A DNA stretch of 64,000 nt from a virus. Lineage: Duplodnaviria > Caudoviricetes. Numbering within the stretch: the stretch's first letter is position 1; each line of letters opens with the position of its first letter. The stretch is taken from positions 1 to 64,000 of the IMG/VR virus record IMGVR_UViG_3300032250_000391. One strand, written 5' to 3'. The position numbers and the translations under genes are program-made. The notes below the pieces were generated by a model, which saw only the letters and a program-made list of their open reading frames with translations, did no database searches and was not told the DNA's origin. This document shows, in pieces, positions 5,622-64,000 of this stretch.

Positions 5622-5708
5622 AAATTATCTCCTTAGTTGCTACGTGTTTGTCTCAGTTGTTATATTAACGAGACAACTCAGGCAAGTAAATCACGAGTGA
5701 CTTATTGC

Positions 5709-5918
5709 CTAATTTTCAAAAAAACCGACACTATCTAAATCCTCCGCCACCCAAGAGGCTGGCACATGACTGTCATAAACCCCGATAACGTTCGTCATTT
5801 TCACAAGTTCATTTTGACTTTTAATTCGAGTACATGAAAGCTTGCCTTTTATAAGCCTTACAACAGTTTTGCCGCCTTCGTTTCTTTTTATATTGTCAAT
5901 TACCCTTGCATAGCTCAT
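5709..5918 (-). CDS. Hypothetical protein
   Basis: 69-aa ORF directly after the primase gene. Confidence 0.6.
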   Translation of the reverse strand: MSYARVIDNIKRNEGGKTVVRLIKGKLSCTRIKSQNELVKMTNVIGVYDSHVPASWVAEDLDSVGFFEN

Positions 5919-8711: not shown

Positions 8712-8783
8712 TAATTTCTCCTGTTTGTAATCGCTAAATTTAAAAAGCGCGATACTATATTATAACTCACTAATGACTTATAT

Positions 8784-38510: not shown

Positions 38511-38599
38511 GATAGTTTTTCCTTTTGCAAAAGAGAAATGTTAATAAGTCATTGGTGACTTACAGAATATACCACAAAGACGACAATAAATCACTAACA

Positions 38600-47604: not shown

Positions 47605-47928
47605 TTAAATGTCTAACTCAAGTTGCAAGTCATCATCGTAAAAGTCTTCCATTATAGAAGTTGGTGCAACTTTGTTACTTTCAAAGTGTTGAACGCCTAA
47701 CGGTGTTAATCCAATTAGCACGCGGTTTCTGCCTCTTCTTTTTTCCATACCAAGCTTTATTGCCCACTCATGACGAATCATAGTGCGCAAAGTAAACTGA
47801 AACGCTTGCTTGGTTGTTTTGTAATCTAGTCGTTCTAAAATTTGGTCAAGGTCAACTGAAGATTTATCTTCGTTTCCCAAACTTAATACTTTCATAACAT
47901 ACAAATGCTTTTCTGATGGGTATTCCAT
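47605..47928 (-). CDS. Winged-helix DNA-binding protein
   Basis: DLDQIL...TTKQAFQFTLR...LTPLG wHTH pattern. Confidence 0.6.
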   Translation of the reverse strand: MEYPSEKHLYVMKVLSLGNEDKSSVDLDQILERLDYKTTKQAFQFTLRTMIRHEWAIKLGMEKRRGRNRVLIGLTPLGVQHFESNKVAPTSIMEDFYDDDLQLELDI

Positions 47929-51301: not shown

Positions 51302-51373
51302 TAGGTTCCATATTGTTAATAAGTCATTGGTGACTTATACTACTCCAAATATTTTATAGAGGCAAGAGCTGAA

Positions 51374-54446: not shown

Positions 54447-54663
54447 CATAGTTCTACATATAAGCGTTTATTGCATGTATCACTTTTTTTGGATTTAATT
54501 GCGTATATAGAATGTATATACCTACTCATGTGTGCATTGGTCACCTATATAAGCGTTTATTACCGCTAGGTTTCTGTGGCTGTATAAGGGTCACTTTATT
54601 TAGCTAGGAAATTAGGCGCCTACCCCACCCTGTGCGGTCGCCCCTCCCTAAGAGTGACCGCTT

Positions 54664-54696
54664 GCTAAACAGTATAAACTATTTATACTGTTTAGC
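54664..54696. terminator. 15-bp perfect hairpin ending the 193-aa gene
   Basis: GCTAAACAGTATAAA-CTA-TTTATACTGTTTAGC. Confidence 0.7.
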
Positions 54697-54711
54697 GATA
54701 CTGCTTAAAAT

Positions 54712-55293
54712 TTAAGCAAAATGCACAATTTTAGCAAGACGGTCGCGCGTCGCGATATCTTTAAAAGCTTGTAATTTTGCTTTGTTGTCATAAGTGATTA
54801 AGTTAGCGTATTGTAGCATTTTGCGAGTGCTAGACGCTTGAGTGCTAGACGTCGAAGTCGCGATATGTAATTGATTTTTACGCAAGCTTAAGTCGCTATC
54901 ATTAAGCGCAATAGCTTTGCTCATACCTTTTTGTATTTGCTCATTAGTCGCGCTATCTTTAAGCAATAACATCGATGTGATGTAATTGCGCGTATATCTA
55001 TCAAGTGAGTCGATATTTTGAGATAACGTTTTTAAAAGCTTGAAATACTTGATAATTGCTTTTTGAGCAAAATAGTTTGTATTATTGTCATCTGTGATTG
55101 CGATGATTGACGCGATTGAATTAAAATCAATTTTTTCGTTATGCATAACAGTCGCAAGATGCACTGTAAATAATGATTGAGCTTGTTTTAATTCTTTAGT
55201 CATATTATCGTTTTTAGATTGTGCGATGCGTGAATCTAAAGAGTTATTGATAGCGTTGAAAATTGAGTTAATAGCTGATTGTGTTTTAGTCAT
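54712..55293 (-). CDS. 193-aa GG/CC-depleted gene (no Pro, no Trp, one Gly); candidate immediate-early regulator
   Basis: Has its own sigma70 promoter (TTTACA-16-TATAGT, 55349-55376), RBS AAGGTAG and terminator. Confidence 0.8.
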   Translation of the reverse strand: MTKTQSAINSIFNAINNSLDSRIAQSKNDNMTKELKQAQSLFTVHLATVMHNEKIDFNSIASIIAITDDNNTNYFAQKAIIKYFKLLKTLSQNIDSLDRYTRNYITSMLLLKDSATNEQIQKGMSKAIALNDSDLSLRKNQLHIATSTSSTQASSTRKMLQYANLITYDNKAKLQAFKDIATRDRLAKIVHFA

Positions 55294-55451
55294 TTTAAAT
55301 CTACCTTGTAATTAATTAATAAAAGTGTTGTTGTGTACAACAGTTATAACTATACGCTCATTTAAAAAAATGTAAATACTTTTAAGCATAAAAACACTAA
55401 AAAAAATAAAAATAAATTGCTTGACATGGTTTAAATTCTATGCGGCAAAAT

Positions 55452-55774
55452 ACGCTTAGGCAGTGCGGATGAGGAGTGTCCGCGTTTAGGCGTTGGATGA
55501 GGACGATTCGCGTTTAGGCACTCAAATGAGAATCGTCCGCATCGGCGGTAGGCATCAGCTGCCTACAAAAGCCTAGGCGGCTTTCAAGGACGCTACCCGT
55601 ACCTATAGGTCACCAGCTACCCTCACCTGTAGGTCACCAGCTGCCCATACATCCTTGGCAGTAGGAATAGATTGCTACCCATACGTCATTACACACCCAT
55701 ACACCAAGGACTGGCTGGCTACCCGCACCTATGCCCATCTATCCATAAAACAGGCATCACATAGCTACCCGTAC
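55452..55774. repeat. Repeat array: three ~29-bp TTAGGC..(G/A)ATGAG units, then GCTACCCRTAC-type repeats
   Basis: TTAGG at 55456, 55486 and 55514; GCTACCC-like copies at 55592, 55616, 55640, 55674, 55718 and 55764. Confidence 0.75.
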
Positions 55775-55883
55775 ACTCTACGGCTGGTTTTAGTGAGTAA
55801 GTGATACAAAGACCTAGGAAAAGTAAATGAACGCGTTCTAGGGCTATTACTGCAAGCCCTAGAGTATTAAATAACAGCCCTAC

Positions 55884-56129
55884 TTAAGCGAAGTGTAAGT
55901 CTGCGTAAGACCAATCGTCATAGCGTTGGCGATGTACTTTCTTGCTATTGAGGAATTTATCTGTATCGCATGCCCAATCATAGTCGTCCTCTTCAACATC
56001 AAGAATTGGCACTGCTTTAGCAATTTTAGGTTCTACTGCAAGAAAATCTACGTAGATAACGCTAGGCGGCTCTGCTAGATACTCCACTTCAACACCGTAG
56101 TTATTGGACTCGTTTAACTCTTGATTCAT
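55884..56129 (-). CDS. Acidic hypothetical protein
   Basis: RBS AGGAG and a GCC-class promoter upstream. Confidence 0.6.
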   Translation of the reverse strand: MNQELNESNNYGVEVEYLAEPPSVIYVDFLAVEPKIAKAVPILDVEEDDYDWACDTDKFLNSKKVHRQRYDDWSYADLHFA

Positions 56130-56361
56130 GATACTGCTCCTAGTAAGTGATTAAATATGTAGTGATTTGCTACAACTTCATTGTAAGCACTCAGTTTAGG
56201 CGCGTGGATGGCACTACTTAGGCAGAGTAAAAGCGATAGATAAAGGCTTAGGCGTTTAAGAATTGCGGATTGATTCCATGGCCTGCGGATGACATTAGAT
56301 AGCCTTGGCCGAGAGCCTGTGGCCTAAAAGGGAGAACCCTTTGGCCTGATACTGAAATAGC

Positions 56362-56970
56362 CTAGTTACTAATGCAGGCTCTAGTGATGATTGCCGTGCC
56401 TAGAATTACCATCATGAGCCAAAGCCAGCCTACGCCATTCTCTAGCAACTGTGAAACGCCAATGGTTAGAATAATGCCGCCTAGAACGGTTAAGGAATTG
56501 TTGTAGTTCATAGTATTACTCCTAAATAAACACCCAAGAAAATTGTTAAGTAAACGCCAATCATTAGTAAGGCGGCGCCATCGGTAAAATATCTGTTTCT
56601 CATTTTTCCTCCTAAGTCAGTAGTGACTTATCAATTAAAATAAAACTTTGGACATCACACGCTCATGAAATTTTCTTTCCCTACGTGTTCTGATTGCATG
56701 CTCAATAAGAGAGGCAATGCCAAGAAATCCGCATAAGCCTGTAATAAATACTAAAATTAAAATTAAGTTTTCCATCTTGTTTCTCCTTTTGTTTGTTTAA
56801 CCACAATTTCATTATATAGAGCGATGTCAGGCACGAGAACAGGCAGTTTAATTAAAAAGCAAGTAGCCTACGAAGTACAAAACAATCAAGGTAGGCAAAG
56901 ATACGACGATAACGTTAATTAGGGTGAAAATGGCGGTAAATAAATTGCCAACTTTGTCAAAAATATTCAA
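56362..56970 (-). CDS. Four tiny membrane-peptide ORFs: 56362-56511 (49 aa), 56508-56603 (31 aa), 56635-56775 (46 aa), 56848-56970 (40 aa, TTG start)
   Basis: Manual translation; each has a GGAG-type RBS and 1-2 hydrophobic segments. Confidence 0.65.
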
Positions 56971-57230
56971 TACATACTCCTATAGTCGTTTAACTGATGC
57001 TTCATTATATCGACAAAATTCAGGGAATTATCTTGGCAAAAAACACTGCCAAATGCCTAGGCAACTTTTAAGGCATTTTCATTCTTACTTTCCTATAGGC
57101 AACACCTTCAATTCCTAAGCCTGGCTTCATTCTTAAAAAACGCCTAATCTCTCACATAGGAGCTACCCATACAATTTTGTCACCACTCAGCCTAATATTT
57201 ATTTCATGGAAGCTAGCCGTACATCATTGA

Positions 57231-57398
57231 CTAGCCATACACGTCCATCTCCGTCTCCTCTTCCTCTTCAATTTCCTCAAGATAGTCAGGCTTATACTTG
57301 TCTTTGCGAATGTAAGTCTCCTTAAGCCGTAAGTCTTCCTCTACTCGCATACGGTATTTAGGCGTTCTTAAATCTTTGTGTATAAGTGACTGCTTCAT
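57231..57398 (-). CDS. ArfA-like 55-aa protein (not in ORF track)
   Basis: MKQSLIHKDLRTPKYRMRVEEDLRLKETYIRKDKYKPDYLEEIEEEEETEMDVYG; ungapped match to the ArfA core. Confidence 0.55.
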   Translation of the reverse strand: MKQSLIHKDLRTPKYRMRVEEDLRLKETYIRKDKYKPDYLEEIEEEEETEMDVYG

Positions 57399-57767
57399 GT
57401 GTTTAGTATAGAAAAGAAAGTTAGGGCAAGCTACAGGCGGAATAATGGCTAATGAATATATTGAGTTAATTGTTTTTAAACAAATAGAGGCTTCTGGGAG
57501 AGGAAACCTAAAACTGAAAGATAAGCCCCCCCAAACCCCCCATGCCTATAGACACGTTGACCGAAGGGTTCAAGGTATGCCATCTAGCGTTCTATTAGTA
57601 TCAATCCAAAAGCCTAGGCTTCTGTACAAGTCAAACCAACAAAACTGAAAGACAAGCCCCCAGAAAGAAAGAGAAAACTCCCTAGGCATTACATTTGGCT
57701 CTAATCAGGGCTTACACGTTGCCTGTGGCTCAATGGTTTAATGCTTCGGAAACCAAATCATGTTATT

Positions 57768-57796
57768 AGTATAAATATGGACTTTAGGTAAGTCAA
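57768..57796 (-). promoter_or_regulatory. Consensus sigma70 promoter overlapped by an operator
   Basis: TTGACT-17-TATACT; operator at 57789-57806. Confidence 0.75.
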
Positions 57797-57999
57797 TAGT
57801 GACTTATCAATTACCTAAAAATAGTTCACAACTGGTGCCATGGCAATGGCCTGCGATTACTGTCGCAGCCTAAGCCTGGTGGCCTGGCATTGGAATCTGA
57901 AACTGGCTGTAGGTGGCCTGTAGTGTGTAAGTGAAAATCTAATTAGCCTAACGATTGAAGAGAGGTTCACTCCTCACCCCCAATCACTTACATATCTGC

Positions 58000-58383
58000 C
58001 TAACCTTCTTCCTCTGTCCACTCTTTATATCTTAAGGCATCTATCTTGTTCACCATCCACATCAGTTCTTCTCTGAGGCTTTCAAACCGTTCTTTATTTT
58101 CCATGTCAATTATTGGTCTTTCATTACTGCCTGGAAACTTATAAAGCTCAATCATATCTAGGAGAATATTCTTTAAAGTAAACTTTGCGCCTACAATAAC
58201 TTGTTTGTATTCCTCATTATCAAAATGGCTGATGGCTTCTAACACTTCGTCCTCAGCCCATAGGCTTGAAATTGTGTAGCTAAATATGTTTTTGCCATCT
58301 ACAAAGTCCCTTTCTATCAGAACTCCTTCATCCTCAATGTAACGATAGGTGCCATTTTTAATTGTCTTTTTTCCACTTGCCAT
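58000..58383 (-). CDS. Early hypothetical protein
   Basis: ORF with RBS. Confidence 0.65.
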   Translation of the reverse strand: MASGKKTIKNGTYRYIEDEGVLIERDFVDGKNIFSYTISSLWAEDEVLEAISHFDNEEYKQVIVGAKFTLKNILLDMIELYKFPGSNERPIIDMENKERFESLREELMWMVNKIDALRYKEWTEEEG

Positions 58384-58433
58384 TTATTGCCCTCTTTAGC
58401 CTACGGTTTATTTATTGCCGTTGTTCTTTACTT

Positions 58434-58628
58434 TTAGTTTAGCCTTACGCCTTTTATTAAACTCAGCTCGTCATTCCTGTACTCAAGACGGCTTTCAGGA
58501 TATTCCCATTCCGAGTCCAAATCATCAATGACGATATTCCTACCGTGATTATAGACTTCAACTACTTTGCCTTTGATGTTTTGGTCTATTACTTCGACGA
58601 TATCGCCTAAGCTGAAAATATTGCTCAT
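58434..58628 (-). CDS. Small SH3/KOW-like hypothetical protein
   Basis: FSLGDIVEV..GKVVEV; RBS and GCC-class promoter. Confidence 0.55.
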   Translation of the reverse strand: MSNIFSLGDIVEVIDQNIKGKVVEVYNHGRNIVIDDLDSEWEYPESRLEYRNDELSLIKGVRLN

Positions 58629-58702
58629 GCCATCTCCTTAATTAGTTTTGTTTCGATAGTTTATTATCACAGTTAATTTCAGGCGAGAGAACCGGCACTT
58701 AA

Positions 58703-59029
58703 CTACTGCCTAGCTACCGTTTCAAAGGCTTTATTGATGTCTTTTAAATTATCGTAAGTCCAAGCATCAATAAAATCTACGCCTTCGGGCAGTTCATTAT
58801 AGGAAAAGTCCTCATCCGAAACGCAAATGCGCTCACAGGCGACGCCTTCGACATAATTGTTATACTCGTCCATTGAGCGAAAGACGTTGTAATAGCCATG
58901 CTTGTCCAAATAGACAAAGGCTATGGAATCCTTGTCCTCTACTGCCCTAGCAATTAAGAATTGTCCTACGCCGCAGTCCTCGCAATAAAGCCACTCGACT
59001 TTATCGTCAAAGTCCTTGTATGTGTTCAT
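58703..59029 (-). CDS. Early hypothetical protein
   Basis: Translationally coupled ORF. Confidence 0.6.
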   Translation of the reverse strand: MNTYKDFDDKVEWLYCEDCGVGQFLIARAVEDKDSIAFVYLDKHGYYNVFRSMDEYNNYVEGVACERICVSDEDFSYNELPEGVDFIDAWTYDNLKDINKAFETVARQ

Positions 59030-59352
59030 GCTATCTCCTTTGGAATATCAACTTCGTGTCCTAACTTATTTGCGACGTAGCACCGCATGGCGGCTATTAG
59101 TGGACTTGAGCCACAGAAAAAATCAGGCGTGTTTATGCTATTTCCAAAGGCAGCACACCATTCTTGACCTTTCCATATCTGCATGCCTTCATGCTCAATA
59201 ATTGGACCGCCTTGTGCCCAATCTTCTGTAGGCACATAGTAATCTCCGTTTTCTAAAATAATTACTTGGTCTATTTCTACATTTAGGCTTTGACACTTTG
59301 CCACAGCCCAATCAAGCGCCATGCCTGTTAGTTCTGATGTTTCAATTTTCAT
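59026..59352 (-). CDS. DUF2591/NinX-like protein
   Basis: ELTG.ALDWAVA, P.EDWAQGGPIIE and PLIAAMRC.VA motifs. Confidence 0.8.
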   Translation of the reverse strand: MKIETSELTGMALDWAVAKCQSLNVEIDQVIILENGDYYVPTEDWAQGGPIIEHEGMQIWKGQEWCAAFGNSINTPDFFCGSSPLIAAMRCYVANKLGHEVDIPKEIA

Positions 59353-59353
59353 T

Positions 59354-59683
59354 TTACTTCTCCTTTAGATAATCTTGCATTGCCTCAAAATAATTGTTCG
59401 CATCTTGCTCTAGGCTAAAAGTTAGCTTGTAGTCCAAAGCCTCGTACTGCACTTCACCGCTTGGCATTTCCTCATACTGAATTGCGATGTCTTGGCTGCT
59501 TTCCCAATACGGTGTGGCATAAACCACTTCCATGAACTCCTCTTCTGGCATTGGTCTGCACCAAAAGATTGAGCCTGTGTGTTCTTCGCTATCAATAGTC
59601 CAACCATGTAGCGATTTTCTTTGCCTTAGTAACTCTTTGAGTAGGCTATCTATGTATACTTCCAAGTCCTCTTGTGTGTTCAT
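59354..59683 (-). CDS. Acidic early hypothetical protein
   Basis: RBS and GCC-class promoter. Confidence 0.65.
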   Translation of the reverse strand: MNTQEDLEVYIDSLLKELLRQRKSLHGWTIDSEEHTGSIFWCRPMPEEEFMEVVYATPYWESSQDIAIQYEEMPSGEVQYEALDYKLTFSLEQDANNYFEAMQDYLKEK

Positions 59684-60138
59684 TTTCTCTCCTTTACTTG
59701 ATGCTTTTATTATCTCAAACAGACTTAGGGCGGTACACAGGCACTTGCTAGTTGCCTGACTTGATTTAAAGCGTTTTAAGCGTTTATTTTTTTAGCGTAT
59801 ACCGTCATATAGACTAACTTAGGTGGACGAGCTGTAGCGTTAGGTAGAGCGGTTCCTAGAGCATACTTATCGCTTGATGCATACGCAAAAAAGTGCTTGC
59901 CCTAAGTTGTATAATGCCTATGAAACGCAAACACAATTTAGGCTTCGCAAGTCATTGATTTTATTGGACAAATAAAAAGGTAGGCAAAAAAATGCCTGAA
60001 TAGACTCGGAGATGGCTAATTCAGGCTTATTTCGGGATTAAGGACTATAGCGTTTTACTGCTATATCTCATTATATACAGGGTTTTATTTATATTGCTAG
60101 GCAATGTGAATTTACGCTCCTAGGCAATGTATAGACGG

Positions 60139-60165
60139 AAAAAAGGCGGGGTCACAAGTCCCGCC
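60139..60165 (-). terminator. Intrinsic terminator
   Basis: GGCGGG..CCCGCC stem followed by T6 on the minus strand. Confidence 0.75.
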
Positions 60166-60265
60166 CTACTGCTTTTCCAACGGTAATCACTCCGTTATTT
60201 ACTTACAAGGTGGCAATTATACGATACCGCCAAAACGTTTTATTATTGTATTCCAAAAAGTGTTT

Positions 60266-60445
60266 TTATTGCAAGCCACATGCCTCTAAAAATGTGCTTG
60301 TTTGGAATGCGTAGTTGTCCTGTCTAAGTGCATACGCCACCTGCAAGACTGCATTTTTGTAGGCTTCGAGTTGTTGCTCGTTTGTCGGTCTTGCCTGCTT
60401 AACTTTTTCGGCTATTGCAATGTAGGTTTTTCTTGAAGCTGCCAT
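60266..60445 (-). CDS. Small conserved phage protein (start MAASRK)
   Basis: SRKTYIAIA...DN.AF...FLEACG; RBS AAGGAG. Confidence 0.65.
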   Translation of the reverse strand: MAASRKTYIAIAEKVKQARPTNEQQLEAYKNAVLQVAYALRQDNYAFQTSTFLEACGLQ

Positions 60446-60455
60446 AGTATTCTCC

Positions 60456-60731
60456 TTAGTAGTCGATTTCAGGAATGTTAAAACCTTTGGTCGCGGCATA
60501 CGCTTGAAGCTCGCCTACGACACCGTTTAGATAGCGAGCCTTCGCTATTATTTCACCGCGAGGCAATTCGCCATCGCAACTCAGATTTTCAGGGCTAAGT
60601 TTGGAACTCAAAGAGTTTGCCAAGCGTTTGCAGTCCTTCTCGCTCAAGTCGTAGGGATTGTAAGTAGCGTCTTTGCCAAAGATAGCGTCCCAATCGTTTT
60701 GTTGTTCGCAGTATTGGATTAAATTTCTCAT
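60456..60731 (-). CDS. Conserved phage hypothetical protein
   Basis: LSPENLSCDGE motif; RBS before MRNL. Confidence 0.7.
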   Translation of the reverse strand: MRNLIQYCEQQNDWDAIFGKDATYNPYDLSEKDCKRLANSLSSKLSPENLSCDGELPRGEIIAKARYLNGVVGELQAYAATKGFNIPEIDY

Positions 60732-60741
60732 GGTTTTCTCC

Positions 60742-61065
60742 TTATGCAATTACTGGCTTGAAGCCAAAGTTGTCGACGATGTAAAAGCCTTCGTTTTCGT
60801 CATTTTTGTTTAGCCAAATTAAATCTCCGACCGAAGTAGAGCGATAATTTTTCCTACCGCCCATCACTTCGACGCCTTCGTTTTCTGACCAATGCTCGTC
60901 AATGGAATTAGTCAAATCAAAGGCGTCAGCTAAAATTCTGTCCTTTAGCAAGTCACGATTATTAAGAAAGGCAACTGGCTCGTAATCGTTTAAGTCGACA
61001 CGCGTTGGCGTCTTGCCAAGATAACCTTCAAATTTTTTCTTTTGCATAACTATGGCTGAGTACAT
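60742..61065 (-). CDS. YodL-like protein
   Basis: RSTSVGDLI...YIVDNFGF. Confidence 0.6.
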   Translation of the reverse strand: MYSAIVMQKKKFEGYLGKTPTRVDLNDYEPVAFLNNRDLLKDRILADAFDLTNSIDEHWSENEGVEVMGGRKNYRSTSVGDLIWLNKNDENEGFYIVDNFGFKPVIA

Positions 61066-61139
61066 TTCCTTCTCCTTTATTAGTGTTGCTCTGTCGATTT
61101 AGTTATTATGACGAAGTAAGTCAGGCGTGACTAATGGCA

Positions 61140-61941
61140 CTAAGTAAATAAAGCAAGTTGCCAATCAGAGTCTTCTTTGATAGGGTCAAAGACAATTTCG
61201 AAGTCTTCGTTTGGCGGTCCAATTTCCATTGTAAAAAAGTCCTGCGCCCAATTCTGAGGCGTATAGTCGCGGTAAGCCCATAGAAGCGTGTCATAGAAAT
61301 AGCCTCTATCCTGCTCGCATGAATACATCACGGCATCTAGGACTAACTTTTTAGCCTCAGAAACGGTTATTTTGGTTTTAGGTCTACTCATGAGAGTGCC
61401 TCCTTTATTCTTTCTAAATTCACGCAGGAATAATTCATCGGATACTTTTCTTCAAATTTAGGGACGACGAGCATAGCCCATATATACGCCTGCTCCGTAT
61501 CTGTCAGTTCCGAAGGCTCGTATACGTTAGTCATGTCCATTTTCATATTTAAGCCCGCCTCTGACGAGAGAATTGGCGCCGCCCAAAGATAGTCCTCATA
61601 CGCGAAGTAGGCGTTACCGTCGTTATGATTGTAAAAAGCCTTAACAAAAGTTTTGTCAGTCATGATTTCTCCTAAAATGAGTAAGGGGCGTAATTGCGAA
61701 TTGGCGAGTCTTTGGAAAGCGATATATGCTCCTTAAACTCGTACTCAATTCCTCTGTCTTTGAGAGCGCCAATAAATAAAGAGGCGTCGCAGTCTTCCTC
61801 TAAGTAGACGTAATCGCCTCTGGCGTAAGAGTAGTAGGAAATCTTGTCATCAATTCCAAACTGCTCCAACATACGTTTCTCGACCTTGAGCCAACCATGT
61901 CCAGGGTCCGAATAAAAATCTAATTGCATTGTCATCTCCAC
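61140..61941 (-). CDS. Three small early ORFs (61140-61391, 61388-61663, 61672-61941; the last has FYSDPGHGWLKV)
   Basis: Coupled ORFs with RBSs behind a GCC-class promoter. Confidence 0.65.
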
Positions 61942-62010
61942 TCTCCTTGTGATTATTTGCTACATTTATAATTGTAGATATCCGATACAGGCGTGTAAAT
62001 CACGAATGAC

Positions 62011-62289
62011 TTACTGCCTAAGAGATGCCAATTTCACAAATCTAGGGCGCATATAATAGTTTTGCGCCTCGATGCAATTGCGGATACTGGCGGCAAACTG
62101 ATGCCTTTTGCCATCGGCATTAGCCAGCTCCATCATTGTGACTGCAATAAAGATGGCAACAAGAGGCTTTTTGTTGTGCAGATGCTCAAGGACTGCGCCT
62201 CGATTACCGTTAAGCCAACTCTCATAAAGTTCGGATATTTCCTCTTCCTCAATTTCAAACTCTGCAACTTTTTCTTTAGGCGATTTCAT
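62011..62289 (-). CDS. Hypothetical protein
   Basis: ES.LNGNR motif; overlaps the previous gene. Confidence 0.6.
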   Translation of the reverse strand: MKSPKEKVAEFEIEEEEISELYESWLNGNRGAVLEHLHNKKPLVAIFIAVTMMELANADGKRHQFAASIRNCIEAQNYYMRPRFVKLASLRQ

Positions 62290-62755
62290 GTAATTCCTCC
62301 ATCCATTCCGGTATGTTTCGATATTTCCAATGTGCGATATGTGCTTTGTGTAGCCTGTAATAAGTACGATAGGCTGTCACGGCGTCAGGATGCTTGCACT
62401 CGTCAGGCATCGCTTGTGCAAACGGTGTCATGCCAATGGGTATAGCTTTGGGTGGCGGACTCCAGATGCTTTCGATGACTGACTGACAGGCATGTCGCTT
62501 GTCGTAGCGGTAGGAATATTCTGCACACAGTTCCAAGCCCAACTCGACTAGCCACTGGTAATTTTCCTTGCTTTGCCTAGCCCAAACTGTGCAGGGATGA
62601 TTTGGATAGGCTGGCTTGTATTGAGAATAACCGCCAAGCAGATGATGGGCTGTGGACAGCATTTGTGCAGTTTCCAACGGCATTTTGACTATATGCTTGT
62701 CCAAGTGAAGCCTTGCGGCCTCAATCGGTTCGTAATCTAGGACAAAAATGTTCAT
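62276..62755 (-). CDS. Pyrimidine-dimer DNA glycosylase/endonuclease V family protein
   Basis: MNIFVLD, DKHIVKM.LE.AQMLSTA, NHPCTVW and F.QAMPD motifs. Confidence 0.85.
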   Translation of the reverse strand: MNIFVLDYEPIEAARLHLDKHIVKMPLETAQMLSTAHHLLGGYSQYKPAYPNHPCTVWARQSKENYQWLVELGLELCAEYSYRYDKRHACQSVIESIWSPPPKAIPIGMTPFAQAMPDECKHPDAVTAYRTYYRLHKAHIAHWKYRNIPEWMEELHEIA

Positions 62756-63481
62756 TGAAATTCGACTCCAACAAAGAAGCCCATCATGATTAAGGCGGCA
62801 GATACTTTTCTTGGTAATTCGTATACGCCATCGTAATCTCGTAGGGTGACTTGCGTTTCGTCAATCACACTTGTTTCATCCTCAAACCACAAGCCACCGC
62901 CTGTGCCAGTTTTTTGATGCTCAAAGAATCCATAATTAGCCTGTGAGTCAACTTGCACGTCCCAATCGCCAACTGTTAGTTTTTTGTCAAAGTTATATGC
63001 CATTTTGTTTCTCCTTGTAATTGATTAACCACAATTACATTTTAAAGATTAGATTCAGGCGCGTCGGGTGGCAGTTTCGCTAAATCGTAGGAATCACAGA
63101 TAGGTCATCGTCGCTTGTAAAGAGAGCGCCTGCGTTATTACCTTCATCGTCTTGGGACGAAAAAATATGCGAGCCATCGCTAAAGAAAATGACCAAAGAC
63201 CTTTGATACCAGCCTAAGTTGTCCATTTCGTCGCTTGTTAAATAGCGAACTGAGGCAACTGTTTTGCCGACTAGAAACGCAGAGGCAGACGCCTCCCAAG
63301 ATTTAATTAATTTGTCCAAAATTTACTCCTTTATATACATACGAACTGTGTCGCCAAAACCTAGCAACTTAAGGGCAAAAGCATCTGCTTCTGCCTGTGA
63401 GTCAAACTCTTCCTCACGCCACTTGCGAAGCTCTGTCCATGAATTTTTGGAATACTCAACTACATAATAAACTTTGGTCAT
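62752..63481 (-). CDS. Three small early ORFs (62752-63003, 63080-63319, 63323-63481)
   Basis: RBSs and coupled starts/stops; the last ORF (52 aa) was translated manually. Confidence 0.6.
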
Positions 63482-63690
63482 CTCATTGCTCCTTTATGTG
63501 AACTGTTTAAGCCTAGCAATAAGCTAGGGTCTGTTACTAAAATATAATTGCTTTTGGGCATCGGCACGACACAATGCTTTATTTTCCTAGCATTACTTTC
63601 GCCACAATCCATGCAGACCTTGTAGCCTAGCAAGCCTCGTCTGCCATCTACCGCCTCACCGCATTGCCTACAGTCAAACGACTCACTCAT
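63478..63690 (-). CDS. C4 zinc-finger protein (TraR/DksA-like)
   Basis: CRQCGE...R...GY..CMDC. Confidence 0.55.
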   Translation of the reverse strand: MSESFDCRQCGEAVDGRRGLLGYKVCMDCGESNARKIKHCVVPMPKSNYILVTDPSLLLGLNSSHKGAMR

Positions 63691-63863
63691 AACTCCTCCC
63701 ATCTAGCCATCATTTCGCCTAAATCTACTACTGGCGCGTCATCGCTGACGTTGTACCAGAGGCAATAGGGGTCGTTGTTTTGCTTTAAATTTGCTTGGCT
63801 AACATTCTGCTGCCAATCAATTTTTTCTTGCTCTGCCTGCCATACCGCTTTTACTCTACCCAT
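63687..63863 (-). CDS. Hypothetical protein (start MGRVK)
   Basis: RBS GAGGAG. Confidence 0.55.
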   Translation of the reverse strand: MGRVKAVWQAEQEKIDWQQNVSQANLKQNNDPYCLWYNVSDDAPVVDLGEMMARWEEL

Positions 63864-64000
63864 AACTGACTCCTCCTCTTTCGTAGCCAACTACATTAAA
63901 ATCGCCATGATTGCCAATGATTGAAAGATTAGGGTTGTCATCAAAGTAATAGAAAATGGCATCGTCATCCTCGCCTTCAACCCCGTTCCACTCGCCAATA

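Follow-up and report, generated by a model that had tools for sequence, protein, structure and literature searches.

A 64,000-nucleotide stretch of DNA from a virus of the Caudoviricetes (Duplodnaviria; IMG/VR record IMGVR_UViG_3300032250_000391), hereafter the window, carries a series of promoter-like sites in which a GCC-containing box stands at a fixed distance from a -10 hexamer. Their spacing, strand and position indicate that these sites are real promoters of one class, and the class, as predicted from the genomes compared, extends through a clade of SSU5-related phages made up of large temperate siphophages and phage-plasmids. We give about even weight to the view that they are promoters of the host primary sigma factor that depend on a box-binding factor, probably encoded by the phage. 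The first-pass annotation of the window had listed ten such sites as a new promoter class with fixed spacing and no -35 element. All ten -10 hexamers and their CCT(G/A)(A/T) boxes were found on the minus strand at the coordinates given below, with exactly 13 nt from the CC to the -10. The enrichment is specific to one spacing and one strand, and most members fail a scan for the sigma-70 consensus, which bears out the description as a promoter class with fixed spacing.

The window is the first 64 kb of a record of 96,102 bp, estimated to be 97% complete, whose minus strand holds nearly all genes of the phage. We read the motif on this strand and computed expectations over the 96,102-bp genome with a first-order Markov model. 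The pattern CCTRA-Nx-NANAAT occurs eight times at x = 10 (0.9 expected) and 0 to 3 times at each of the other spacings from 0 to 25; the plus strand has a single match. A relaxed form of the box, N10 and -10 arrangement is found 17 times for 2.8 expected. Start codons with a Shine-Dalgarno sequence before them follow 25-50 nt downstream of the sites. Searches for the pattern with two GCC boxes gave 12 matches here and none elsewhere, over 1.96 Mb plus 0.61 Mb of DNA from other phages and metagenomes.

A weight matrix built from 16 sites has five invariant positions (C-27, C-26, T-25, A-11, and T-7) and three that are nearly so (G-28, A-23, and T-41, 13 of 16 each). Scanning the genome with this matrix gives 17 strong sites, all on the coding strand. 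Among them is a site at 66213 that was not in the seed set and scores 27.9 bits, for a mean maximum of 12.7 bits in simulated sequence. Strong members beyond the ten listed at first lie at 64406, 65131, 66213, 67151, 68427, 68520, and 70601, and weaker ones at 72796, 80754, 81296, 91187, and 93356. The full form of the motif is YGCC (-41..-38), a degenerate TTnACn, (C/T)GCCTRW (-29..-23), N10 and nAtAAT. An inverted copy of the box, AGGCA(G/A), occupies -55..-50 in eight or nine sites. The -10 is typical of a primary sigma factor, with A-11 and T-7 in all 16 sites and T-12 in 11.

The second GCC that had been reported for eight of the ten sites is present in each of them, as YGCC 9-10 nt upstream of the first; the other two, at 61971 and 5662, carry a palindrome in its place. 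The absence of a -35 element holds for the literal TTGACA and has to be qualified otherwise. A degenerate TTnACn lies between the two GCC boxes at the canonical spacing of 17 bp (T-35 in 13, A-32 in 11, and C-31 in 13 of the 16 sites), and there is a TTTACA at 61971 and a TTTACT at 5662. Counted from the matrix sequences, this element matches TTGACA at about 3.0 of its six positions on average, for about 1.6 by chance. The boxes thus straddle a weak -35 and do not replace it. Five sites (5667, 61976, 65131, 68427, and 70601), which we call class B, have no distal box but the palindrome TAAGTCA-N4-TGATTTA at -49..-32, and the right arm of the palindrome provides TTTAC(A/T), a good -35. In this phage the weak -35 coincides systematically and exactly with the distal GCC box; a good one occurs only at sites that have the palindrome in its stead. 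The class does not have the canonical sigma-70 arrangement of a TTGACA-like -35 at 16-18 bp from a TATAAT-like -10: only 61971 (10/12) and 61105 (9/12) of the ten listed sites pass the sigma-70 consensus scan, which as a whole returned 24 hits for 21.6 in shuffled sequence, i.e., no excess.

All ten listed sites are on the minus strand, and eight of them are of class A. The highest score belongs to 56811..56845 (TGCCTG, then TGCCTGA, N10, TATAAT; 31.4 bits), with a 46-aa gene behind it (56635-56775). At 56180..56214 the site reads TGCC, 9 nt, CGCCTAA, N10, TACAAT (26.8 bits) and precedes an 81-aa gene (55884-56129). Three sites share the form TGCC, N10, CCTGA, N10: 57004..57038, ending in TATAAT (24.8 bits) and followed by a 40-aa open reading frame (ORF; 56848-56970); 61105..61139, ending in CATAAT (25.9 bits) and followed by a 107-aa gene (60742-61065); and 63039..63073, ending in TAAAAT (26.1 bits) and followed by an operon (63003-62011) that includes a gene of the Pyr_excise family. 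The site at 57405..57439 (CGCC, N10, CCTAA, N10, TATACT; 16.1 bits) precedes a 55-aa ORF (57231-57398) that may be leaderless, because its ATG comes 6 nt after the TATACT (57398-57410). Two sites carry all three boxes: 58663..58711 (AGGCAG, N8, TGCC, N8, CGCCTGA, N10, GATAAT; 26.2 bits), upstream of a 64-aa gene (58434-58628), and 59709..59757 (AGGCAA, N8, TGCC, N8, GCCCTAA, N10, GATAAT; 19.6 bits), upstream of an operon that starts at 59683. The class B sites are 61971..62019 (AGGCAG, the palindrome at 61996-62013 with the right arm TTTACA at 17 bp from the -10, CGCCTGT, N10, TACAAT; 26.7 bits) and, before the ligase operon, 5662..5710 (AGGCAA, the palindrome at 5687-5704 giving TTTACT, TGCCTGA, N10, TAATAT; 28.5 bits).

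To look for the class in related phages, we took for each ORF with a Shine-Dalgarno sequence the best -10-like hexamer 12-75 nt upstream and counted 4-mers at every offset from it. This genome gives GCCT at offset 12 (11 counts for 0.5 expected), TGCC at 25 and AGGC at 39. At the same offset as GCCT, CCTG is enriched in G001 (8 for 0.37), G003 (7 for 0.60), G004 (7 for 0.5), G007 (7 for 0.74), and G008 (10 for 0.68). In total, the proximal box stands at this offset in seven related IMG/VR phages with GC contents of 55-67%. Scans over spacings peak only at the spacing of the class and on the coding strand, with 15, 22, 11, and 9 sites in G000, G001, G003, and G004 and 7, 13, and 15 in G006, G007, and G008. 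The strict pattern CCTRA-N10-NANAAT had made the relatives appear negative, a result overturned by the offset and spacing analyses; it was a false negative, because the pattern demands an AT-rich -10 in genomes of 55-60% GC. The members in G003 have a clear TTG at -35..-33. Only one orthologous promoter was compared in a close relative, that of the ligase operon in locus L152 (76% nucleotide identity over the region): AGGCA, the palindrome arms, TTTAC, and GCCTGA are kept, and the N10 spacer and the 5' untranslated region have diverged.

The portal protein and DnaE of this phage are 45-55% identical to those of three groups alike: Rhizobium RHEph10-like phages, Pseudomonas and Stenotrophomonas phages of about 110 kb, and SSU5-like phage-plasmids such as Escherichia phage Cyrano. 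Cyrano has the class, with GCCT at offset 12 (7 for 0.45 expected, z = 7.6) in the variants CGCCTT and TGCCTT; about 14 sites lie 35-55 nt upstream of annotated starts, and their -10 is mostly GATAAT, GAAAAT, or CAAAAT. Several Cyrano sites (OV696614: 93146, 95782, 97222, 97921, and 98405) have a TG at -15/-14, like an extended -10, together with G or C, not T, at -12. Two have a second GCCTG 21 bp upstream of the proximal box, as against 12 bp in this phage. A search of the whole genome of Rhizobium phage RHph_X66 found no signal of the class. Across the clade the box reads (C/T)GCCT(G/A/T)(A/T) at -29..-23, stops 10 bp short of an nAtAAT -10 and goes with a weak or degenerate -35. The conservation of the class across relatives of quite different base composition points to a dedicated reader.

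Published RNA sequencing of a Cyrano lysogen shows how genes behind the sites behave in growing cells. The genes directly behind class sites (CYRAN_59, 101, 105, 108, 110, and 111) read 5.7-25, on a scale where the floor is about 5 and the lysogen-expressed genes read 57-148 (PMC9928086, S1 table). The class promoters are therefore not constitutive in E. coli, since the genes behind them are near the detection floor; they either need a factor of the lytic cycle or are repressed. What the analysis shows is the motif with its statistics, where it stands with respect to genes, how it is conserved from genome to genome, and this low expression; that a protein reads the box and activates the promoters is our inference. 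The holoenzyme of the host primary sigma factor would use the -10 and the weak -35, and a putative box-binding protein, probably phage-encoded, would sit on the spacer and the -35 flank and be needed for activity, in the manner of class II or sigma-appropriation activators such as T4 MotA, lambda CII, and PhoB. A more specific version, which we hold tentatively and with less than even confidence, is that the spacer element (-29..-23) is read by a phage protein that retargets the host primary-sigma polymerase, forming a sigma-appropriation-like switch of the SSU5 supercluster that is unrelated to MotA/AsiA, CII, and Lpa and is modular with the immunity operators. Such a switch would include the E. 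coli phage-plasmids, and those of Klebsiella and Salmonella by extension only.

The main rival invokes negative control: the boxes would be operators of a second repressor or early shut-off protein conserved in the clade, and the promoters would be self-sufficient with host sigma. The boxes extend over the -35 flank and the spacer, so that a protein bound there would obstruct RNA polymerase, and the low reads behind the Cyrano sites are what repression in the lysogen would give. The good -10 elements and the partial -35 also suit this reading, as do the G003 members with their proper TTG. We nevertheless consider it unlikely. The -35 is weak precisely where the distal GCC box is present, a pattern typical of activated promoters, and most members fail the sigma-70 scan. 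A separate operator system is, moreover, already in place.

This other system is a palindrome, TAAGTCA-N4-TGACTTA, of which the whole genome has about 40 copies in intergenic DNA; examples in the window are at 5687-5704, 38545-38562, 51320-51337, 56613-56630, 57789-57806, and 61996-62013. Some copies cover -35 elements, others mark predicted transcript starts immediately ahead of ribosome-binding sites, and others fall between a TTGCCT box and TATAAT. The phage encodes a CI-like HTH_3 protein on the plus strand (93885-94304), with homologues of 37-50% identity in exactly G002 to G005. The palindrome occurs about 30 times in G003, about 19 times in G004 and also in the G002 and G005 loci; both it and the HTH_3 homologue are missing from G001, so that the two co-occur in four of the four relatives that have the repressor and are absent together from the one without it. 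The palindrome is thus most likely, on sequence grounds, the operator of the CI-like repressor, in a dispersed operator/stoperator system. G001, an IMG/VR provirus of 99,100 bp, has instead another palindrome, CTAGTAA-N4-TTACTAG, between AGGCAG and the CCTG box (near 2397, 8529, and 92435). This suggests that immunity operators are swapped modularly on a conserved promoter scaffold. It also implies that the GCC boxes are read by something other than the CI-like repressor, since G001 lacks the HTH_3 protein and keeps both AGGCAG and the CCTG box. The palindrome is a system separate from the GCC boxes, which are conserved across immunity types. Dispersed intergenic copies are also found for the P1 C1 operators and the gp71 stoperators of mycobacteriophage L5, to which we liken the palindrome and not the GCC box; those sites are asymmetric, whereas the palindrome here is symmetric and its binding by the repressor is putative.

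Which protein would read the boxes is less clear. The first-pass annotation had proposed a 193-aa protein encoded on the minus strand (54712..55293), and in this reading an early product made from its own host-type promoter would switch the class on. The gene does have a sigma-70-like promoter (TTTACA-16-TATAGT at 55376-55349), one of the three best canonical matches in the region (10/12), and in G000 and G001 it adjoins the promoter-rich region of small genes. The predicted structure, an AlphaFold model with a mean predicted local distance difference test score (pLDDT) of 96.9 from an alignment of 42 sequences (42.7 with four sequences), has an N-terminal helical part and a C-terminal winged-helix domain. 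The 50 best VIA-align matches are all winged-helix DNA-binding domains (residues ~85-193, Z 6.9-8.4), and the most conserved segment of the family, STxSTQxSSTR, starts the predicted recognition helix. The model therefore makes a DNA-binding protein plausible, and all eight class-positive IMG/VR genomes that were checked have members of the family. By the notes of the tool itself the Z scores are middling, however, and Foldseek found no match to the model in the PDB at E <= 0.001. The distribution of the family does not match that of the class: no member was found in Cyrano, which has the class, and RHph_X66 has two members and no detectable class. Nothing ties the protein to these boxes in particular. 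We regard the proposal of this protein as the activator as improbable.

The same annotation had stated that the box motif is purged from the 193-aa gene. The purge itself is real: the transcription unit (54661-55427) contains three GG/CC dinucleotides for 38 expected, the genome-wide minimum. The homologous genes of G003 and G004 are likewise the GG/CC minima of their own genomes, at 10-23 GC points below them, and members of the family have few or no Pro, Gly, and Trp residues. What has been removed, though, is every GG/CC dinucleotide and not this motif, and the tie between purge and boxes is for that reason unproven.

The phage also encodes a sigma factor of its own, a 225-aa protein with a Sigma70_r2 match above the cut-off (32 bits), on the minus strand at genome positions 89276-89953, outside the window, between a CobS-like gene and DnaE. 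In an alignment, the E. coli sigma-70 residues W433, W434, Q437, and T440 have no equivalents in it, and the helix of its region 4 is different; it should consequently read something other than TTGACA/TATAAT. Homologues are found in most relatives of the clade that were checked. Direct reading of the class by this protein seems very improbable all the same. The distribution of the class does not follow that of the sigma factor: a Sigma70_r2 search of Cyrano, which has the class, gave nothing at E <= 1, and RHph_X66 has the sigma, in the same gene order, and no detectable class. E. coli sigma factors must serve the Cyrano sites, since Cyrano has no sigma gene. Regions 2 and 4 of a sigma factor contact elements separated by 16-19 bp, and the boxes, at 10 and 25 bp from the -10, do not fit this geometry; the -10 itself looks like that of a primary sigma. 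The sigma gene overlaps a downstream 175-aa gene whose product has a Cys-rich N-terminus (phrog_3616; the pair spans genome positions 88767-89953, L003:596-1782, on the minus strand). This pair between CobS and DnaE is annotated in RHph_X66 too and is missing in Cyrano.

We profiled all 130 ORFs over nine genomes, and only terS, a 107-aa protein and an ASCH protein match the distribution of the class; by annotation, RHph_X66 also has an ASCH protein. The 107-aa protein (47605..47928, minus strand) is encoded just upstream of terS and is a homologue of CYRAN_123, annotated as a DNA-binding-domain protein. By tblastn, which may miss a diverged copy in RHph_X66, it is the sole DNA-binding candidate that is present in every class-positive genome and not in RHph_X66. 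It is a lead only for the putative reader of the boxes. Searches of the 96-kb genome for MotA (MotCF, PF09158), AsiA (PF09010), and Phage_CII (PF05269) gave no match at E <= 1. Pfam and PHROGs assigned no function to the 193-aa, 175-aa, and 107-aa proteins or to most of the small proteins.

A reader without any phage factor is also conceivable: a component of the host that many Proteobacteria share, be it RNA polymerase itself or a global DNA-binding protein. The box is kept in phages of 41% to 67% GC, one of them a phage of E. coli, and none of the 130 profiled ORFs encodes a protein with both a matching distribution and a proven DNA-binding role. Against this, the two-box pattern has no match in the 2.6 Mb of other phage and metagenome DNA, the related phage RHph_X66 gives no signal of the class, and growing E. 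coli lysogens do not express the Cyrano genes in question. Nor is any regulator or promoter element of E. coli known that has the sequence of the box at -29..-23. A host component as the reader is in our judgement a quite improbable explanation.

Dependence on an activator, probably phage-encoded, stays our preferred reading, and several points weigh against it. The two obvious candidates, the 193-aa family and the phage sigma, both fail the distribution test. A host factor shared by very different hosts, or direct reading by RNA polymerase, keeps the small share of probability just assigned to it. Repression and missing activation would account equally well for the low expression in the lysogen. 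The start sites of the class members are predicted from sequence, and the reader is a putative protein. Detection in the high-GC relatives uses a loose definition of the -10, and the counts in G006 and G007 are small or noisy; the plus strand of G007 reaches 12 at a neighbouring spacing, which makes its peak weak, and a stricter scan for the box leaves G003 and G008 with weak peaks and G006 and G007 with practically none. Finally, the genomes compared are related to one another and are not independent samples.

Other signals lie among and around the class sites. A canonical-looking promoter, TTGACT-17-TATACT, is at 57768..57806 on the minus strand (15.9 bits), with its -35 inside a perfect copy of the palindrome (57789-57806), a weak CCTAA at the position of the class box and a non-coding stretch downstream. 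The non-coding stretches 57450-57990 and 59750-60260 contain promoter- and terminator-like signals, namely this TTGACT-17-TATACT (57796-57768) and, near 60150 and 59990, hairpins with T runs behind them. Small RNAs may be encoded there; Rfam has no match in 55300-64000. The region 55440-55800 resembles an origin of replication, with a 24-bp tandem repeat containing GGGTAGC (55592-55646) and, at about 55461-55530, three units of about 29 bp that each end in GCCTAA(A/G)CG, so that the GCC box also occurs away from promoters. Promoters of the replication module (genome positions 84619, 85290, 76525, and 91208; window positions 8763-8780) have the form TTGCCTRW-N5-palindrome-TAAT. Their TGCC lies 28-29 nt from a downstream TATAAT, the distance of the distal box in the class, and the palindrome takes the position of the proximal box.

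The setting is that of an integrated temperate phage, since the right end of the genome has an integrase, the CI-like HTH_3 protein on the opposite strand, a small cro-like ORF, and a host tRNA-Cys. Beside the integrase, at genome positions 95892-96102 (L002:15892-16102), are the host tRNA-Cys(GCA) and the 3' end of a second tRNA; as they adjoin the integrase at the end of the contig, this is a prophage-host junction. No tRNA genes were found in the window. The genome also encodes CobT- and CobS-like proteins, a DnaE-UDG fusion, a gp32-like single-stranded DNA-binding protein, RecA, and a ribonucleotide reductase. Comparison of the region with 50,697 phage records by blastn gave no match, and locus searches with the phage sigma or with the 193-aa protein (alone or as an alignment) returned no related loci. 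With the Pyr_excise gene as the query, viral and metagenome contigs gave only distant phages (at most 60% identity), none with the motif, and genome contigs gave one metagenome-assembled genome of the Betaproteobacteria (66% identity). A UFOVP26_57 homologue, 80% identical, lies on a 101,713-bp contig. An Atlas search returned no named family.

Among Enterobacteriaceae, phage-plasmids of the SSU5 type are common, and resistance and toxin-antitoxin genes are part of their cargo (PMC9600943, PMC9928086). The timing of their gene expression is essentially undescribed, and the class supplies a concrete cis-element with single-base spacing rules. An E. coli phage-plasmid inducible in the laboratory carries this element, which makes the switching-on of the accessory and early regions directly testable, and the element lets annotators find transcription units across the clade. 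If the reader were indeed a new protein that retargets the polymerase, it would join the few known systems of sigma appropriation. What is new here is the proximal box at the same offset across related phages, with its YGCCTT variant in Cyrano; in the literature searched, on SSU5 promoters, the palindrome, and details of P1 Lpa, we found no description of this motif, and the class is undescribed there.

The class resembles several known types of promoter, each in part. The sigma-54 elements (-24/-12), LexA boxes, and lux boxes were rejected by eye, because their sequences do not fit. The P1 late promoters, served by Lpa and host SspA, also belong to a phage-plasmid and combine a -10 with a phage-specific element centred in the low -20s that replaces the -35. 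The P1 element is an inverted repeat near -22, whereas the box core here is asymmetric, and the genes served here are not late structural genes. In the Pho-box promoters of PhoB, the -35 gives way to an element of about 18-20 bp, two direct repeats whose end lies 10 bp upstream of the -10. This geometry matches the class A sites; the sequence is unrelated, the -35 is only partly lost, and the class is phage-borne and specific to a clade. No response regulator of the OmpR/PhoB family was seen among the phage proteins scanned.

The lambda CII promoters (pRE, pI, and paQ) share with the class direct tetranucleotide repeats that straddle a weak -35, here YGCC at -41..-38 and -29..-26. The period is 12 bp in this class and 10 bp in TTGC-N6-TTGC, the CII site. 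At least 17 promoters for accessory and replication genes are concerned here, in contrast to three promoters for lysogeny, and the phage has no Phage_CII homologue. The middle promoters of T4 were the analogy drawn at first. As to membership it fails: the box is SCCTRW and not the MotA box, (a/t)3TGCTTtA, and it ends exactly 10 bp from the -10 instead of 12 +/- 1. The MotA box is centred at about -30. The class also adds distal and inverted boxes, lacks homologues of the MotA C-terminal domain and of AsiA, and occurs in temperate phages and phage-plasmids that are not T4-like. As a description of how the promoters would work, the analogy is fair: both combine a housekeeping-type -10 with a phage-specific box placed a short, fixed distance before it, the -35 being poor or absent, and both recur many times before early and middle genes.

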